IMG/VR virus record: IMGVR_UViG_2740892113_000010
Length of the DNA stretch: 21,266 nt
Direction: 5' to 3' (one strand)
From: a virus
Taxonomy: Duplodnaviria; Heunggongvirae; Uroviricota; Caudoviricetes
The first letter of the stretch is position 1, and every line of letters begins with the position of its first letter. Shown piece by piece: positions 3,597 through 20,345 of this stretch. The translations under genes were made by a program, and so were the position numbers. The notes beneath the pieces are model-generated. The model worked only from the letters and a program-made list of their open reading frames with translations, ran no database searches and was not told the DNA's origin.

Positions 3597-4601
3597 TAGT
3601 TGATACCCGCTGCCGAGCTGAAAGCTCTATCAATATTATTTCTGTTTCTGGCGGAAAGGATAGCCTTGCTCAATGGCTTGTTGGTATTGAAAGCGGTGTG
3701 CATTTTTTTGCCGGTTTTTGCAGACACCGGGCATGAGCATCCGCAGACAATGGAGTATCTCGATTATCTGGAGAACCGACTCGGGCCGGTTAAACGGGTT
3801 AAAGCTGACTTCTCCCGACAGATTGAAGGTAAGCGCAAGTTTATTGCTGAGAAATGGCCTGTTTCTCTGGTTGAAGAGTGCGGAATGTCTCCGGGGGAAG
3901 CGGCAGAGCGCATCAATTGTGCGCTGGAAATTCTCAAGCCTACTGGTATCCCATTTCTTGATTTGTGCATGTGGAAAGGGCGATTTCCTTCCACTAAAGC
4001 CAGATTTTGCACTTTTGACCTTAAACATGAGCCAGTACGTACTCAGGTCGTGTTACCTGCGCTTAATGAGTTTGATGAGGTAATTAGCTGGCAGGGGATT
4101 CGCGCTCAGGAGTCTCCTGCGCGCGCGGGTCTGCCTGCCTGGGAAGAGGATGCGGACAATACGCCCGGGCTCCATGTATACCGTCCTATTCTGAACTGGA
4201 CGCATGAGGAGGTATTTGCATTTGCAAGACGTCATGGAATTAAACCTAATCCGTTATACCAGCAGGGATGCAGTCGTGTCGGTTGTATGCCCTGCATCCA
4301 CGCCAGAAAGTCTGAATTAGCTGAAATTTTTAGTCGCTGGCCGGAAGAGGTTAAGCGTGTTGCGGAATGGGAGCGACTTGTCGCCGCATGCTCCAGACGC
4401 GGAAATTCTACTTTCTTCCCGTCAACTCATGACCCGCGTCGTGCGGAACGCCGCATTGATATTATTACTGTCGATGCTTACGGAATTGAGTCTTATCGTG
4501 ACTGGGCGATGACCACGCGTGGCGGGGCACAGTTTGATTTGCTGGCTTCGGTGAATGATAAGTCAGTTTGCAGTAGTGTCTATGCCGGTGTATGTGAATG
4601 A
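3593..4601 (+). pseudogene. PP-loop / PAPS-reductase-family protein, interrupted by a frameshift
   Basis: ATG 3593 (ATGA overlap with the upstream stop) opens a frame encoding MIVDTRCRAESSINIISVSGGKDSLAQWLVGIESGVHFF..., i.e. a canonical SGGKDS PP-loop, which stops at 3734-3736. The long ORF (track 3600..4601) is in a different frame and carries the expected downstream motif FADTGHEHPQT. The two frames overlap across a T7 run (3703-3709) and a T5 run (3715-3719). Removing one T restores ...GVHFLPVFADTGHE... Confidence 0.7.
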
Positions 4602-6883
4602 GTCATTCTTTCCAGGAGCAATACACCTGCGTACCTCCGTCAGCATTTGCTGCAGGCACCGGTAAGGCGTTTACCGGTGCTTATGCATGGAACGCGCCAC
4701 GCGAGGCCGTCGGGCGCGAAAGACCCCTTACACGTGACGAGATGCGTCAGGTGCAAGGTGTTTTATCCACGATTAACCGCCTGCCTTACTTTTTGCGCTC
4801 GCTGTTTACTTCACGCTATGACTACATCCGGCGCAATAAAAGCCCGGTGCACGGGTTTTATTTCCTCACATCTACTTTTCAGCGTCGTTTATGGCCGCGC
4901 ATTGAGCGCGTGAATCAGCGCCATGAAATGAACACCGACGCGTCGTTGCTATTTCTGGCAGAGCGTGACCACTATGCGCGCCTGCCTGGAATGAATGACA
5001 AGGAGCTGAAAAAGTTTGCCGCCCGTATCTCATCGCAGCTTTTCATGATGTATGAGGAACTCTGCGATGCATGGGTTGATGCACATGGCGAAAAAGAATC
5101 GCTGTTTACGGATGAGGCGCAGACTCACCTGTATGGTCATGTTGCTGGCGCTGCACGTGCTTTCAATATTTCCCCGCTCTACTGGAAAAAATACCGTAAA
5201 GGACAGATAACCACGAGGCAGGCATATTCTGCCATTGCCCGTCTGTTTAACGATGAGTGGTGGACTCATCAGCTTAAAGGCCAGCGTATGCGCTGGCATG
5301 AGGCGTTACTGATTGCTGTCGGGGAGGTCAATAAAGACCGTTCTCCTTATGCCAGTAAACATGCCATTCGTGATGTGCGTGCGCGCCGCCAGGCAAATCT
5401 GGAGTTTCTTAAATCGTGTGACCTTGAAAACAGGGAAACCGGCGAACGCATCGACCTTATCAGTAAGGTGATGGGCAGTATTTCTAATCCTGAAATTCGC
5501 CGGATGGAGCTGATGAACACCATTGCCGGTATTGAGCGTTACGCCGCCGCAGAGGGTGATGTGGGGATGTTTATCACGCTGACCGCGCCGTCAAAGTATC
5601 ACCCGACACGTCAGGTCGGAAAAGGCGAAAGTAAAACCGTTCAGCTTAATCACGGCTGGAACGATGAGGCATTTAATCCAAAGGATGCGCAGCGTTATCT
5701 CTGCCGTATCTGGAGCCTGATGCGCACGGCATTCAAGGATAATGATTTACAGGTCTACGGTTTGCGAGTCGTCGAGCCACACCACGACGGAACGCCGCAC
5801 TGGCATATGATGCTTTTTTGTAATCCACGCCAGCGTAACCAGATTATTGAAATCATGCGTCGCTACGCGCTCAAAGAGGATGGCGACGAAAGAGGAGCTG
5901 CGCGAAACCGTTTTCAGGCAAAACACCTTAACCGGGGCGGTGCTGCAGGGTATATCGCGAAATACATCTCAAAAAACATCGATGGCTATGCACTGGATGG
6001 TCAGCTCGATAACGATACCGGCAGGCCGCTGAAAGACACTGCCGCGGCTGTTACCGCATGGGCGTCAACGTGGCGCATTCCGCAATTTAAAACGGTTGGC
6101 CTGCCGACAATGGGGGCTTACCGTGAACTACGCAAATTGCCTCGCGGCGTCAGCATTGCTGATGAGTTTGACGAGCGCGTCGAGGCTGCACGCGCCGCTG
6201 CAGACAGTGGTGATTTTGCGTTGTATATCAGCGCGCAGGGCGGGGCAAATGTCCCGCGCGATTGTCAGACTGTCAGGGTCGCCCGTAGCCCGTCGGATGA
6301 CGTTAACGAGTACGAGGAAGAAGTCGAGAGAGTGGTCGGCATTTACGCGCCGCATCTCGGCGCGCGTCATATTCATATCACCAGAACGACGGACTGGCGC
6401 ATTGTTCCGAAAGTGCCGGTCGTTGAGCCTTTGACTTTAAAAAGCGGCATCGCCGCGCCTCGGAGTCCTGTCAATAACTGTGGAAAGCTCACCGGTGGTG
6501 ATACTTCGTTACCGGCTCCCACACCTTCTGAGCACGCCGCAGCAGTGCTTAATCTGGTAGATGACGGTGTTATCGAATGGAATGACCCGGAGGTCGTGAG
6601 GGCGCTCAGAGGTGCATTAAAACACGGCCTGAGAAGACCAAACCGTCAGCAAAGAAACGGAAGCCCGTTAAAACCGCATGAAATAGCGCCATCGGCCAGA
6701 CTGACCCGGTCTGAACGATTGCAAATCACCCGTATCCGCGTTGACCTTGCTCAGAACGGTATCAGGCCGCAGCGATGGGAGCTTGAGGCGCTGGCGCGTG
6801 GCGCGACCGTAAATTATGACGGGAAAAAATTCACGTATCCGGTCGCTGATGAGTGGTCGGGATTCTGGCATCAATTTGAGTAA
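4598..6883 (+). CDS. A: Rolling-circle replication initiator endonuclease, P2 gpA-like (761 aa)
   Basis: 761 aa, as recalled for P2 gpA. HUH-type motif (TPHWHMMLF) and tyrosines in YIAKYISK. ATGA overlap with the upstream gene. Confidence 0.93.
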   Translation: MSHSFQEQYTCVPPSAFAAGTGKAFTGAYAWNAPREAVGRERPLTRDEMRQVQGVLSTINRLPYFLRSLFTSRYDYIRRNKSPVHGFYFLTSTFQRRLWPRIERVNQRHEMNTDASLLFLAERDHYARLPGMNDKELKKFAARISSQLFMMYEELCDAWVDAHGEKESLFTDEAQTHLYGHVAGAARAFNISPLYWKKYRKGQITTRQAYSAIARLFNDEWWTHQLKGQRMRWHEALLIAVGEVNKDRSPYASKHAIRDVRARRQANLEFLKSCDLENRETGERIDLISKVMGSISNPEIRRMELMNTIAGIERYAAAEGDVGMFITLTAPSKYHPTRQVGKGESKTVQLNHGWNDEAFNPKDAQRYLCRIWSLMRTAFKDNDLQVYGLRVVEPHHDGTPHWHMMLFCNPRQRNQIIEIMRRYALKEDGDERGAARNRFQAKHLNRGGAAGYIAKYISKNIDGYALDGQLDNDTGRPLKDTAAAVTAWASTWRIPQFKTVGLPTMGAYRELRKLPRGVSIADEFDERVEAARAAADSGDFALYISAQGGANVPRDCQTVRVARSPSDDVNEYEEEVERVVGIYAPHLGARHIHITRTTDWRIVPKVPVVEPLTLKSGIAAPRSPVNNCGKLTGGDTSLPAPTPSEHAAAVLNLVDDGVIEWNDPEVVRALRGALKHGLRRPNRQQRNGSPLKPHEIAPSARLTRSERLQITRIRVDLAQNGIRPQRWELEALARGATVNYDGKKFTYPVADEWSGFWHQFE

Positions 6884-6972
6884 GGATCTCATCTATACAG
6901 TATAAGTAGTTTTGACTGTAATTGATTGTTTTTTATATGGTTGCATGCATTAAATCTACGTCAATATCATTA

Positions 6973-6981
6973 TGTTATAAT
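6973..6981 (+). promoter_or_regulatory. Candidate extended -10 promoter (TGtTATAAT) for the cargo operon
   Basis: TG-n-TATAAT read at 6973-6981, about 30 bp upstream of ATG 7010 in an AT-rich leader. An alternative TTGACT (6912-6917), 16 bp, TATATG pair lies further upstream. Confidence 0.35.
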
Positions 6982-7009
6982 GCATTACTTAAAAATGTTG
7001 GAGATAAAA

Positions 7010-7201
7010 ATGTTAAAGCCTGCAGATGTTGTTTGTTTGAAAAGCGGTGGATTTAAAATGACTGTATCTGACTCTACTGAAACTCATGCTAAATGTATTT
7101 GGCATGATAAAGAAGGAGTTTTGCACGAGGAGTCATTCTCCATTGATTTACTGGAAATAGCAGAGAGTAAAAGTGGTATGCTTTGTCGTCCACGTAAGTG
7201 A
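7010..7201 (+). CDS. Small DUF2158 / YodC-like protein (63 aa)
   Basis: ATG 7010 with SD GGAG (7000-7003, 6-nt spacer). The ORF-track start at 6926 is a TTG with no SD. Motif DVVCLKSGGFKMTV...CIWHD resembles the conserved core I recall for the YodC/DUF2158 family. AT-rich codon usage. Confidence 0.6.
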   Translation: MLKPADVVCLKSGGFKMTVSDSTETHAKCIWHDKEGVLHEESFSIDLLEIAESKSGMLCRPRK

Positions 7202-7228
7202 ATCATAATAAAATTCACGGGGGAAAGT

Positions 7229-7909
7229 ATGAAACAATACAGCGAATTAGAAAACAATGTTAAGAGATTCATTGTTGAGCATGAAAAAGGGATTTCTATT
7301 GATGATATTCATCATAAGTTCCGGATGAAGGATGGTCAGAATCGCAAGATGGCAGATTATCTTATTGATAATAAAAAGATAATTTTGGAGATGAAAAGTC
7401 TTTTTTCTGACAGGGTCAAGAATGTCAATGATAAACTGAATGAGTTGGTTAAAACTGATAGTTGGCTTGCAAAAAACTGGCATGGTGCTATTCATTTAGA
7501 AGAGTTGATAAAAAGACACCCAGACTCAAAGCGATTTAGAAATGATATAATGAACTTTGCTTATGAAAATATTAAAACAAAGATAGTTAAGGAAGCTAAT
7601 AAGCAAATAAATGCAACAAAGGATGTTTTGGATTTAAATGACTCGATTGGCGGGTTGATTTTGTTAAATGATAATGTCTTTTCACATGAGTCTAATTATT
7701 TGTCAGATGAAATATTATATTTGCTAGGCACAAAGAGATATTCGAGTGTTGAGTTTGTGGTTTATATTGCAAAATTGATTGATAAACAGGTTGATGTTTG
7801 TGTGCTACTTGACAGTCAATCTAAAAATAAAAATTATATTGAATGGTATATGAATAATGTTTTTTTATTGAACTGGGCGTCTTTTAATAAATATGCAATA
7901 AAGATGTAG
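7229..7909 (+). CDS. Hypothetical protein, 226 aa (cargo, unknown function)
   Basis: Clean ORF 27 bp downstream of the YodC-like gene on the same strand, G-rich SD (GGGGGAAAG). Strongly AT-rich, Lys/Asn/Ile-rich. No Walker A or other recognisable catalytic motif. Confidence 0.7.
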   Translation: MKQYSELENNVKRFIVEHEKGISIDDIHHKFRMKDGQNRKMADYLIDNKKIILEMKSLFSDRVKNVNDKLNELVKTDSWLAKNWHGAIHLEELIKRHPDSKRFRNDIMNFAYENIKTKIVKEANKQINATKDVLDLNDSIGGLILLNDNVFSHESNYLSDEILYLLGTKRYSSVEFVVYIAKLIDKQVDVCVLLDSQSKNKNYIEWYMNNVFLLNWASFNKYAIKM

Positions 7910-8228
7910 TGGTGTGGATGGATATGAAATGAGTCAACCAAGATGCACCTTGGTCAGTAATCTCATGTGAGATACCACATATAACACCAAAAGTGTCAGG
8001 TTGATGGCCATTGTTCACCGTTTACAGCAGATTATGGTCAACGAAAATCTGACGCCTGACGAGCTGGTCGGGTGTGCCGAAATAGTCTGGGATAATTACG
8101 GGCGGTTTAACTATATCGGTCAGTCCAGAGTTGCGCCACCACCACGCAGACGATAGAGAACGCCGCCAGTCGTGAAACTTGTTTTCAGGCTGGCGGAGTT
8201 GAACAACGAGCGAAGTGAGGCGTTAGCA

Positions 8229-9170
8229 TTAAGTTAATTTTAATGAATGGTACTCTATCGAGCTGATTGTAGATGCGATATATTTACGATCATTTACAGA
8301 GAGTATTGCCGCTAGTAGACGACATACCAGAGCCTGCATTTGTAGCAATATATCGCTACCATATTGACAATCATTGATACTAGAGAAACCAAGCGGTTGC
8401 CCATTAAAAATGGCTTCATGAAAATTATCATTGCGTATAACTGAAACATTACATTCATCTGTTGCCCATGACGGGATTTTTACACCGTAATTTTCGCACA
8501 TCCAATATACTCTATTTTGATGAGATGGTTTTTTCTCTTTAATGACTTTATCCCTTTCATCCCATGCTATAGCAAAACAGCAATCAAGAGCCATATAAAG
8601 ATACTGGAATTTCTCAAAGGAAAGGTATAGTGGGTTATGTGACAGGAATAGGGAGTGTATCACCGCAGCTATTCTTTTAATGGAGCGATCATCTTTTTGT
8701 TTGTCTTTTATATAGTTAAGTGCTAGCTCTATTACTTCTTTTTCAGAGCATCCAACGAGAATAAAGTCGGTTAACTTAGTGGGCTTGATAGTGGTTGCAT
8801 CAAGAAAACCAGCGTCAGTGGTTGTCAATCTTATACCCTTGAAAAAAGAGAGGCACCACACAACAAAGTTGAGAGTTTCTAACGAGGATGTGTTTTTTAA
8901 TTTTAGTGTGTGCGTTTTGGGCATGCCGAATACTCGGTAACTATAAGGCATTGTGCATGTGTCACCATTAAGGTTATATACCTTTCGATTCCCAGGGTAT
9001 ATCCAACCATTAACAACGTTTTTATCATTGTTAATACGTTCCACGTTCTCAATAAGACCGGGTAAAGTACGCAAAGAAAATTGTTCAGTCTCAATGTTAA
9101 CTTCTACTGGATAGTATCCAAACTCCGAAATAATCTCATTTGGTTGCTGTTCGTCAACTTCACCTTGCAT
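8229..9170 (-). CDS. Hypothetical protein, 313 aa (cargo, unknown function)
   Basis: Minus-strand ORF convergent with the 226-aa gene. SD GGAGA 5 nt upstream of the ATG (complement of 9168-9170). AT-rich. No P-loop, so not an Old-type ATPase. Confidence 0.7.
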   Translation of the reverse strand: MQGEVDEQQPNEIISEFGYYPVEVNIETEQFSLRTLPGLIENVERINNDKNVVNGWIYPGNRKVYNLNGDTCTMPYSYRVFGMPKTHTLKLKNTSSLETLNFVVWCLSFFKGIRLTTTDAGFLDATTIKPTKLTDFILVGCSEKEVIELALNYIKDKQKDDRSIKRIAAVIHSLFLSHNPLYLSFEKFQYLYMALDCCFAIAWDERDKVIKEKKPSHQNRVYWMCENYGVKIPSWATDECNVSVIRNDNFHEAIFNGQPLGFSSINDCQYGSDILLQMQALVCRLLAAILSVNDRKYIASTISSIEYHSLKLT

Positions 9171-9588: not shown

Positions 9589-10623
9589 TCAGCCGTTGTC
9601 AGTGTCAAGTGAGTAGTTTTTAAAGCGGATGACCTCCTGACCGAGCCAGTCGTTTATCTCGCGGATCCTGTCCTGTAACGGGATAAGCTCATTGCGGACA
9701 AAGACCTTTGCCACTTTCTCAATATCACCCAGCGACCCGACGTTCTCCGGCTTGCCACCCATCAACTGAAAGGGGATGCGGTGCGCGTCCAGCAGGTCAG
9801 CGGCGCTGGCTTTTTTGATATTAAAAAAATCGTCCTTCGTCGCCACTTCACTGAGGGGGATAATTTTAATGCCGTCGGCTTTCCCCTGTGGGGCATAGAG
9901 AAACAGATTTTTAAAGTTATTGCGGCCTTTCGACTTCACCATGTTTTCGCGAAGCATTTCGATATCGTTGCGATCCTGCACGGCATCGGTGACGTACATG
10001 ATGTATCCAGCATGTGCGCCATTTTCGTAATACTTGCGGCGGAACAGCGTGGCCGACTCATTCAGCCAGGCAGAGTTAAGGGCGCTGAGATATTCCGGCA
10101 GGCCGTACAGCTCCTGATTAATATCCGGCTCCAGCAGGTGAAACACGGAGCCGGACGCGAAGGCTGTCGGCTCGTTGAAGGACGGCACCCACCAGTAAAC
10201 ATCCTCCTCCACGCCACGGCGGGTATATTTTGCCGGTGAGGTTTCCAGCCTGATAACCTTACCGGTGGTGCTGTAACGCTTTTCCAGAAACGCATTACCG
10301 AACACCAGAAAATCCAGCACAAAGCGGCTGAAATCCTGCTGGGAAAGCCACGGGTGCGGAATAAACGTTGAAGCCAGAATATTACGTTTGACGTAAATCG
10401 GTGAGCTGTGATGTACGGCAGCACGCAGGCTTTTTGCCAGACCGGTAAAGCTGACCGGTGGCTCATACCATCTGCCGTTACTGATGCACTCGACGTAATC
10501 CAGAATGTCACGGCGGTCGAGTACCGGCACCGGCTCACCAAAGGTGAATGCCTCCATTTTCGGGGCGCTGGCGGTCATTGTTTTCACCGCAGGTTGCGGT
10601 GTTTTCCCTTTTTTCTTGCTCAT
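9589..10623 (-). CDS. Q: Portal protein, P2 gpQ-like (344 aa)
   Basis: 344 aa, next to cos, start overlapping the stop of P; order and length as in P2. Confidence 0.93.
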   Translation of the reverse strand: MSKKKGKTPQPAVKTMTASAPKMEAFTFGEPVPVLDRRDILDYVECISNGRWYEPPVSFTGLAKSLRAAVHHSSPIYVKRNILASTFIPHPWLSQQDFSRFVLDFLVFGNAFLEKRYSTTGKVIRLETSPAKYTRRGVEEDVYWWVPSFNEPTAFASGSVFHLLEPDINQELYGLPEYLSALNSAWLNESATLFRRKYYENGAHAGYIMYVTDAVQDRNDIEMLRENMVKSKGRNNFKNLFLYAPQGKADGIKIIPLSEVATKDDFFNIKKASAADLLDAHRIPFQLMGGKPENVGSLGDIEKVAKVFVRNELIPLQDRIREINDWLGQEVIRFKNYSLDTDNG

Positions 10624-18840: not shown

Positions 18841-19626
18841 TTATGAGTGGTTTTTATTTGATGCTTTGTATTCTAAAACCTTCTTATTGGCGTAAAGGAA
18901 TTTTGTGTATGACAGGAATATAAATAGACCTGAAATGAAATAGATTAGGGATATTATTAATAATGTTTTTCTGTGGCTGTTATTATCTTTAATCTCCTGA
19001 CTTAACCATTCGGAGTCCTCCTCGTTTAGCTGTAAGAGCTTATTGCAGGCGATTGCAGGAAGTGTGTCTGTTACAAAAGTGTTCTGCAGTCTCTTGCAAT
19101 CGGCAATGCTAAAAGCTTTATAGAACTTATCTGTTTTATTGTCGGAGAACAAAAGAACCTTGTCATTATAAACATGGTACATCATATTTTTATATGGTAT
19201 GGCTATGGCATCCTCTACTATGGCAGATTGCTCGTTGTGTATGCAACATGCGAAGATAATATAAAGAATTCCGGCCAGGACTGCACTCATTGTTTTTGTG
19301 ATGCATGGCGGTTCTGTTATGTCTCCCCAGAAGCGAGTAAGGAAAAAATCCGATGTTTTTAGTTTTCCATCAATCAGCCCCTGCTGTATCATTCTCACAT
19401 CTTCGATGCCTGATACATTGATTCCGTTAAGTATTTTAAATAGTTGAATGTCGCGCCACTCGCGGTCCAGTCTTTTTAATTTTTTGTCTGAATATCCAAA
19501 TTTGAAATAATGTGCAATAAGCCTCATAAGGTTACTTTTACCAAAGCTAAAAAATGCTAATACTGCAAAGACCAAAAGATACAAAACGATTAGCTCCCAC
19601 ACATTAGTCACATTATAGCTGACCAT
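18841..19626 (-). CDS. Membrane protein, 261 aa, three hydrophobic segments (cargo between S and V)
   Basis: Minus-strand ORF with a strong SD (AAGGAGAG, 6-nt spacer to the ATG at 19626). Hydrophobic stretches near residues 10-28, 112-129 and 221-240. AT-rich, unlike the flanking tail genes. Confidence 0.72.
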   Translation of the reverse strand: MVSYNVTNVWELIVLYLLVFAVLAFFSFGKSNLMRLIAHYFKFGYSDKKLKRLDREWRDIQLFKILNGINVSGIEDVRMIQQGLIDGKLKTSDFFLTRFWGDITEPPCITKTMSAVLAGILYIIFACCIHNEQSAIVEDAIAIPYKNMMYHVYNDKVLLFSDNKTDKFYKAFSIADCKRLQNTFVTDTLPAIACNKLLQLNEEDSEWLSQEIKDNNSHRKTLLIISLIYFISGLFIFLSYTKFLYANKKVLEYKASNKNHS

Positions 19627-19709
19627 TACGCTCTCCTTGAATGTTGTCTGGTGGTTCTACAAATGAATCCAGATAGCATAACTTTTATATATTGTGCAAT
19701 CTCACATGC

Positions 19710-20345
19710 ATGGACACTCTCGCAAATATTCAGGAACTCGCGCGCGCACTGCGCAACATGATTCGTACCGGCATTATCGTTGAAACCGACCTTAACGCCG
19801 GTCGCTGCCGTGTGCAGACCGGCGGCATGTGCACCGACTGGCTTCAGTGGCTGACCCATCGCGCCGGACGTTCGCGCACATGGTGGGCACCTTCCGTGGG
19901 GGAACAGGTGCTGATTCTGGCCGTGGGCGGTGAACTCGACACGGCGTTCGTTCTGCCGGGGATTTATTCCGGCGATAACCCTGCGCCGTCTGCGTCGGCG
20001 GATGCCCTGCATATCCGTTTCCCTGACGGGGCGGTGATTGAGTATGAACCCGAAACCAGTGCGCTTACGGTAAGCGGAATTAAAACGGCCAGCGTGACGG
20101 CTTCTGATTCTGTTACTGCCACGGTGCCGGTGGTCATGGTGAAAGCATCAACCCGCATCACTCTGGACACGCCGGAGGTGGTCTGCACAAACAAGCTGAT
20201 CACCGGCACGCTGGAAGTGCAGAAGGGCGGGACGATGCGCGGCAACATTGAACACACCGGCGGTGAACTCTCATCAAACGGTAAGGTACTGCATACCCAT
20301 AAACACCCCGGCGACAGCGGCGGCACAACCGGGAGTCCTTTATGA
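19710..20345 (+). CDS. V: Baseplate spike / assembly protein, P2 gpV-like (211 aa)
   Basis: ORF track 19692..20345 starts at TTG; ATG 19710 (MDTLANIQELARAL...) gives 211 aa as in P2 gpV. No obvious SD immediately upstream. Confidence 0.88.
   Translation: MDTLANIQELARALRNMIRTGIIVETDLNAGRCRVQTGGMCTDWLQWLTHRAGRSRTWWAPSVGEQVLILAVGGELDTAFVLPGIYSGDNPAPSASADALHIRFPDGAVIEYEPETSALTVSGIKTASVTASDSVTATVPVVMVKASTRITLDTPEVVCTNKLITGTLEVQKGGTMRGNIEHTGGELSSNGKVLHTHKHPGDSGGTTGSPL

Follow-up and report, generated by a model that had tools for sequence, protein, structure and literature searches.

A DUF2158–ORF226 gene pair in the gpA–gpQ hotspot of P2-like prophages: a candidate nuclease-based exclusion cassette

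Two small co-directional genes lie next to each other in the interval between replication gene A and portal gene Q of a P2-like prophage, and the question they raise is whether they form a two-gene defence system or have some looser relationship. The DNA analysed here (hereafter, the window) is a stretch of 21,266 nt from a P2-like Escherichia coli prophage, the hotspot of which is 100% identical in strains 4/0, JJ2434, Ecol_656 and others. In the window, gpA occupies positions 4598-6883 (PF05840, E 4e-124), the portal gene Q, assigned by annotation, occupies positions 9589-10623, with the terminase gene after it, and the A–Q interval contains four features, at 7010-7201 (+), 7229-7909 (+), 8001-8156 (+) and 8229-9170 (−), of which the first two are the pair. 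The pair is located inside the gpA–gpQ variable hotspot, a position at which kindred phages carry other genes. The original prediction was correct in placing the pair in a defence hotspot: the gpA–gpQ hotspot of P2 is the anti-phage hotspot defined in PMC9122126, in which old, tin and many validated systems are located, together with cargo unrelated to defence, for example partition systems and the cdt toxin (PMC9122126).

The window contains other accessory genes. Upstream (5') of gpA are integrase, repressor-like, DUF5405 and PAPS-reductase-like genes; the PAPS-reductase-domain gene, at 3600-4601 (+) and directly 5' of gpA (PF01507, E 1e-31), shows PADLOC similarity to SspD, BrxP and DndC (E 2e-18 to 1e-6), has an orthologue in strain 4/0 that is frameshifted according to RefSeq, and is located in the integrase–primase interval, a minor P2 defence hotspot (PMC13586616). 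Between the tail-completion and baseplate genes, and on the opposite strand, is an AT-rich (34-40% GC) gene for a 261-aa protein at 18841-19626 (−) that spans phrog_2407 over its full length, that yielded no Pfam or PADLOC match, and that is a possible further accessory gene in a tail-gene hotspot. A 128-aa ORF at 19626-20012, which is GC-rich and overlaps a + strand gene, is probably spurious.

The pair itself is already catalogued. GenBank entry AM157369, 'P2-EC67 ORF73, ORF226, ORF313', is the same locus (92.9% nucleotide identity to the window over the region, with both proteins 99-100% identical), and Rousset et al. 2022 enter both proteins in their Table S5B as one genetic system (number 63, labelled 'DUF2158'), counted 67 times in the P2 hotspots of E. 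coli (PMC9122126). Table S2 of the same paper, which covers validated and additional tested systems, contains neither protein sequence, and a literature search by accession and ORF names of the locus returned nothing relevant. The three-gene 'HP' system, which protects against P1 (PMC9122126), was considered as an identity for the combination of DUF2158, ORF226 and ORF313 and was rejected: the combination is absent from Table S2, PADLOC was negative, and ORF313 travels independently.

The boundaries of the pair coincide with those of a foreign, AT-rich cassette (6884..7968, +) that occupies the first variable slot after gpA and comprises a promoter, the DUF2158 gene and ORF226. The GC content of the leader and cassette is 29-37%, as compared to 53-60% in the flanking phage backbone, and returns to ~52% at 8000-8200. 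Alignment to other P2-like phages ends at the end of gpA and restarts at window position 7969; in those phages, similarity to the region is limited to 7969-8226 and the stretch near cos, and the breakpoints relative to other P2 phages bracket exactly the DUF2158–ORF226 pair. The right boundary (7969..8226, +), outside the cassette, is a conserved P2-family spacer, with ~88-99% identity in many P2-like phages, that contains a 51-aa ORF at 8001-8156 (+) matching phrog_11386 at positions 18-69 of 69 only. (The RefSeq name of this ORF, 'meiotically up-regulated 80 protein', is an evident naming artefact.) Yersinia phage VB-YPM-4 carries a full-length, 68-aa version of the gene, with an unrelated gene for a 150-aa protein in slot 1 and an ORF313 homologue after it. 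From these alignments we conclude that the 51-aa ORF is what is left, after loss of the 5' end, of a gene for 68-69 aa that P2-like phages conserve, and that the cassette junction lies inside that gene. The GC shift, the P2 alignments and the layout in VB-YPM-4 together indicate that 6884-7968 is one exchangeable slot, the right junction of which clips the small gene. We conclude that the cassette was acquired horizontally and is self-contained and accessory.

The remaining gene of the interval, ORF313 (8229-9170, −), is AT-rich and spans the whole of phrog_5937, and searches of Pfam, NCBIfam and PADLOC gave no significant match to it. Yersinia P2-like phages contain ORF313 but not the pair; conversely, a Citrobacter locus (L008) and a metagenomic P2 relative (L021) contain the pair but not ORF313. 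ORF313 is a second hotspot cargo, in its own slot, independent of the pair.

The original prediction described two co-directional ORFs 27 bp apart, each with its own Shine-Dalgarno sequence, behind an AT-rich leader with an extended −10 element, and inspection of the sequence bears out each part of this description. The gene for the DUF2158/YodC-like small protein (63 aa; 7010..7201, +; ORF call and Pfam PF09926) ends with a TGA codon at 7199-7201, and the gene for ORF226 (226 aa; 7229..7909, +), a putative effector and predicted PD-(D/E)xK-type nuclease, starts with an ATG codon at 7229, leaving a 27-nt gap (7202-7228). An upstream TTG start would give the small ORF 91 aa, and the ATG start giving 63 aa is favoured because 62-aa homologues start with MFKPADVV. 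The Shine-Dalgarno region of the DUF2158 gene, GTTGGAGA (6997..7004, +), is located 6 nt 5' of the ATG, and that of ORF226, GGGGGA (7219..7224, +; read from the sequence), is located within the spacer, 4 nt 5' of the ATG; spacers in relatives are 19-42 nt in length, with an own GAGG or GGGGA in each. Farther upstream are a candidate extended −10 element, TGTTATAAT (TGnTATAAT; 6963..6971, +; read from the sequence), and a conserved element, TAAATCTACGTCA (6941..6953, +), which is at the −35 position or may be a regulator site.

In a comparison of five upstream regions, four retain TAAATCTACGTCA, TGnTATAAT and GTTGGAGA, and in the fifth, from a P2-like metagenomic contig (L020), these elements are degraded. 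The core of the upstream element, ATCTAC-TCA, is present in the window and in L008, L021 and L023, with a degraded version in L020; the TG-n-TATAAT is retained in L008 and L023, reads TGATATACT in L021, and lacks the TG in L020; and the Shine-Dalgarno region of the DUF2158 gene is kept in L008, L021 and L023 and decayed to GCTGGATA in L020. The extended −10 element is missing from the list returned by a simple promoter scan because its −35 is poor, and we uphold it as a candidate because of its conservation in four of the five diverged loci. A site scan of the 27-nt spacer detected no terminator-like site and no + strand promoter-like site, and a + strand hairpin at 7639-7657 falls inside ORF226. 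The arrangement of these sites suggests that the two genes are probably expressed as a single bicistronic mRNA from their own extended −10 element in the lysogen.

The assignment of the small protein to the YodC/DUF2158 family is upheld by profile search, with a match to PF09926 of 33.1 bits (E 4.7e-8; cut-off 22.3 bits) that places residues 6-46 on profile positions 4-48 of 50, and by BLASTP against E. coli K-12 YodC (31% identity over 48 aa, E 2e-7). The invariant residues G13, G14, C29, W31, D33 and G36 are common to the small protein and YodC. PF09926 is also matched, in precomputed assignments, by homologues P0176, P0178 and P0179, and the small protein matches phrog_3261. The best AlphaFold2 model (pLDDT 81.8, from a three-sequence alignment) has strands at residues 7-10, 16-22, 26-32, 38-44 and 48-50, followed by a disordered basic tail. 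According to the model, the small protein is a five-strand KOW/SH3-like barrel, and the predicted fold is of adaptor type, with no obvious catalytic site. A literature search on DUF2158 returned no assigned function, and mentions only in unrelated work. Classification of DUF2158 as a P2 backbone gene was ruled out: the gene is present in two of 50,697 phage records, both with ORF226.

ORF226 has no Pfam, NCBIfam or PADLOC family, and its PHROGs matches, including phrog_20483, which it spans end to end, are to unknown-function families only. The family to which it belongs is nevertheless large. Close homologues (64-100% identity) are present in E. coli, Salmonella, Citrobacter and Pantoea, and 1.84 billion cluster representatives searched with a profile yielded 348 clusters at E<=1e-3, of which 76 reach E<=1e-10, defining a family of at least 348 clusters (clustered at 50% identity). 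Sets of 13 close and 21 diverse sequences show no substitution at D43, E54 or K56, and at least 90% of 134 members retain each of these residues. In the 21 diverse members, A123, Q126 and N147 are invariant as well, and, across the 134, Q126 is invariant and D25, A42, T130, G141, A123 and N147, like the three residues above, are kept in at least 90%. The original prediction had seen no recognisable motif in the 226-aa protein; what emerges instead is a D...ExK motif on a predicted PD-(D/E)xK-like fold, for which the codons of the putative catalytic triad are those for D43 (7355-7357), E54 (7388-7390) and K56 (7394-7396), spanning 7355..7396 (+).

Structure prediction for the 226-aa protein alone is in keeping with this assignment. 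The AlphaFold2 model (pLDDT 82.2, pTM 0.79) bears a moderate resemblance to PD-(D/E)xK restriction-type nucleases: D43 is just ahead of a strand at residues 44-46, E54-x-K56 is within a strand at residues 51-57, and a long helical insertion (residues ~58-134), with Q126 on its long helix, is followed by a strand at residues 140-150 containing N147-D148. In the model, the placement of D43 and ExK is the classical PD-(D/E)xK arrangement. The structural similarity of the model to known folds is moderate only, and a Foldseek search of the model against the PDB gave no significant match. Sequence similarity to named families is likewise below threshold: the window ORF226 has no match to PF18742 (REase_DpnII-MboI) at E<=1; the family consensus matches PF18742 with E 0.0095 and 15.9 bits, under the 27-bit cut-off and in the D...ExK segment only; and eight of the 134 relatives match PF18742 weakly at E<=0.01 (best 1.3e-4), below cut-off. 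A PDB sequence-search match to shikimate kinase (E 0.014) was judged spurious, and single-protein and profile searches otherwise gave nothing meaningful. We conclude from the conserved residues and the model that the ORF226 family probably is an unnamed branch of the PD-(D/E)xK superfamily and that ORF226 is probably an active nuclease.

Larger architectures occur within the family. Some distant relatives (P0046, P0062 and P0084) are 520-740 aa in length, and in these the ORF226-like domain is C-terminal or central, with an Mrr_cat restriction-endonuclease domain on its N-terminal side, a SEC-C metal-binding motif on its C-terminal side, or both; a separate subgroup of ~330-345 aa has a conserved helical extension at the C-terminus.

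Within the P2 lineage, the two genes are inherited as a unit. Of 5,426 complete E. coli genomes, 27 contain the two genes, the same 27 for each and adjacent every time, as had been expected of a two-gene system; with 98-100% nucleotide identity, co-occurrence within E. coli is largely identity by descent. Among the 50,697 phage records, both genes are present in the same two only, and the DUF2158 lineage never occurs without ORF226. The pair is kept in Citrobacter (L008) and in metagenomic P2 relatives (L021/L022 and L023), and partly in L019, with identities across diverged pair loci of 67-81% for DUF2158 and 75-83% for ORF226. Between the window and L008, dN is 0.133 for each gene, dN/dS is 0.185 and 0.087 for the two genes, and the divergence of the pair is comparable to that of gpA; these values indicate that both genes are under purifying selection. 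The neighbouring cargo changes around the pair, being ORF313 in the window, a gene for a 250-aa protein in L008, and nothing in L021, where the pair is the sole cargo from gpA to the portal gene. We conclude from this comparison of loci that the pair is a stable, operon-like module within one lineage.

Outside that lineage, ORF226 homologues are found without the small gene. A Pantoea homologue (240 aa, 64% identity) is alone on IncFII-type contigs, with 500 nt of gene-free sequence upstream; it adjoins a PLD nuclease gene, and a Macro-domain gene is close by in some plasmids. (A tblastn search of ORF226 against PLSDB plasmids gave no match.) A homologue with 67% identity (L018) is without DUF2158. 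In Serratia fonticola (L009, 3333-5538, chromosome), a 226-aa homologue with 43% identity is located 30 nt 3' of a gene for a CI-like repressor (HTH + S24 peptidase), is convergent with a DUF4238 gene, DUF4238 being a validated single-gene defence (PMC9122126), and adjoins a large serine recombinase gene; on our analysis, this layout is reminiscent of prophage immunity regions, in which exclusion genes take a rexAB-like position. A Brenneria homologue (42% identity) follows an unrelated gene for a 141-aa protein; L014 contains a solitary family member with a PD-T4-3/PDC-S11-like gene nearby; and remoter family members are solitary or are located behind a DUF6966 gene. In the latter case (L012, 3526-4672; L013, 142-1288), the DUF6966 gene encodes 128 aa and is co-directional, 89 nt 5' of the family member, in an islet between housekeeping genes, suggesting that another small upstream partner may replace DUF2158. 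A search with the DUF2158 HMM detected nothing within 4-5 kb of the Pantoea, L018, Serratia, Brenneria or remoter homologues.

One locus within the P2 group shows decay of the small gene next to an intact partner. In L020 (540-740), the DUF2158 reading frame contains three in-frame stops: the translation starts MFKLADVV, continues to WHDKCVFLN, and is followed by two stops, SFTFELPEVAVG, another stop, and SGMRRSSRK with its terminal stop. The Shine-Dalgarno sequence is weakened, and the gene for the 229-aa nuclease-fold protein is intact, with 77% identity and all invariant residues kept. This pseudogene rests on a single Logan contig, in which an assembly error is possible. The solitary homologues and the L020 pseudogene together indicate that the nuclease gene can be carried without DUF2158. 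The prediction of a two-gene system thus holds in part: the genes are inherited as one cassette with a conserved promoter and Shine-Dalgarno sequences, but the association is not obligate, most sampled 226-aa members being solitary.

What the cassette does is suggested by its context. Four indirect lines point to a role in defence, namely location in the hotspot, a foreign composition, a nuclease signature, and what relatives have beside or fused to them (DUF4238 or a PD-T4-3/PDC-S11-like gene; Mrr_cat), and it is from this context that we infer a defence function for ORF226. A search with PADLOC-DB v2.0.0 detected neither protein at E<=1, and none of five relatives at E<=0.01. According to the reading that we prefer, and to which we give an even chance of being right, the cassette is a nuclease-based exclusion cassette with ORF226 as effector and DUF2158 as a facultative adaptor or modulator. 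The cassette would be expressed in the lysogen from its own promoter; ORF226 would be a metal-dependent nuclease serving as the effector of superinfection exclusion (anti-phage), with incoming or replicating phage nucleic acid or, once triggered, cellular nucleic acid as its target; and DUF2158, itself non-catalytic, would target or tune the nuclease in the P2 lineage through binding of nucleic acid or of a partner protein. DUF2158 would not, on this best explanation, be an antitoxin.

The distribution of the family bears directly on two competing explanations of the pair. If the pair were a toxin–antitoxin (addiction) module, with DUF2158 as antitoxin and ORF226 as toxin, it would confer prophage stability, or abortive infection upon decay of the antitoxin. 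We regard this explanation as improbable. A type II toxin gene would be expected always to occur with its cognate antitoxin gene, and the loci in Pantoea, L018, Serratia, Brenneria, L014 and L020 depart from that expectation: no DUF2158 is present within 4-5 kb of homologues with 64-67% identity (Pantoea plasmids, L018) or 42-43% (Serratia, Brenneria), no upstream gene whatever is present at the Pantoea homologue, and in L020 the 229-aa gene is intact beside a DUF2158 gene with three stops. Moreover, the predicted KOW/SH3-like barrel is outside the usual antitoxin DNA-binding folds, and DUF2158 exists by itself, as chromosomal yodC. Several of the same observations fit an explanation in which the two are independent accessory genes, the linkage being an accident of cassette assembly and the role of DUF2158 being like that of stress-regulated YodC: the ORF226 family is mostly solitary, DUF2158 stands alone as yodC and constitutes a separate phage family (phrog_3261), the two genes have a Shine-Dalgarno sequence each, across a spacer of 19-42 nt with no translational coupling, and DUF2158 decayed in L020 without loss of its partner. 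However, the equal dN of the two genes through a divergence like that of gpA, the persistence of the pair while cargo changes around it (ORF313, the 250-aa gene, none), and the restriction of the DUF2158 lineage, in 50,697 phage records, to genomes that also have ORF226 make accidental linkage unlikely.

Two further explanations concern what the proteins do. ORF226 could have a non-defence function, either as a DNA-processing or counter-defence protein for phage or plasmid, or as an inactive nuclease-fold DNA binder, located at a permissive site. The hotspot does have non-defence cargo too (PMC9122126), no known defence model was matched, relatives on plasmids are close to replication genes, and structural similarity is moderate only; however, the D, ExK, Q and N, near-invariant throughout 134 diverse members, speak for a conserved active site, several relatives adjoin defence genes or carry an Mrr_cat fusion, and the gene is under strong purifying selection in prophages, so that we consider a non-defence function doubtful. 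A more elaborate proposal, to which we assign a very slight chance, is that DUF2158 is a KOW-domain mimic that would link ORF226 to the transcription or translation machinery or to a phage protein directed at that machinery, such that the pair would sense phage takeover through a NusG/S10-type interface.

New in this work, relative to the existing records, are the nuclease assignment of ORF226 and the size of its family, the predicted KOW/SH3-like fold of DUF2158, and the observation that the partnership is confined to one lineage and can be dispensed with. If the reading of the locus as a nuclease-based exclusion cassette is confirmed, an unnamed nuclease family (at least 348 clusters; not in Pfam, NCBIfam or PADLOC) would join the anti-phage repertoire, and the small-protein family DUF2158/YodC would have a first functional handle. 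If the KOW-mimic proposal were true, the cassette would represent a new sensing principle, the first function for YodC/DUF2158, and a new PD-(D/E)xK defence nuclease family. Three natural variants, namely an intact pair, a nuclease on its own, and a pair in which DUF2158 has decayed, make the question of adaptor versus antitoxin directly testable. In practical terms, the value is modest: the cassette, present in 0.5% of complete E. coli genomes, is rare, is catalogued, and most likely follows the familiar logic of a restriction-fold nuclease effector.

The closest known kind for ORF226 is that of the PD-(D/E)xK nucleases (BsmI, NucC, CdiA-CT EC869 and NucS; PF18742 and Mrr_cat), from which ORF226 differs in scoring under every Pfam cut-off, in having a helical insertion with the invariant Q126, and in belonging to an unnamed family. 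The closest known protein to the small protein is YodC, with the same size, the same level of identity (31%) as given above, and a common G13-G14/C29/W31/D33/G36 core; however, yodC, which is reported to be RpoS-controlled in Salmonella (PMC5437024), is a solitary chromosomal gene, whereas the prophage DUF2158 copy is phage-borne and operon-like with a nuclease-fold gene. In its model, the small protein is akin to the KOW/SH3-like small barrels of the NusG, Spt5 and RfaH C-terminal domains, NdhS, Tudor and HspQ. The records of the locus itself, AM157369 and system 63, give the genes as hypothetical only, without fold, motif or wider family, and a later P2/P4 survey reports novel antiviral functions from P4 loci (PMC13586616). 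As cargo of the P2 hotspot, old, tin, DUF4238 and 'HP' are like the cassette in occupying the same slot, in being small, in having their own promoter, and in being AT-rich and foreign, but have no sequence relationship to the cassette proteins.
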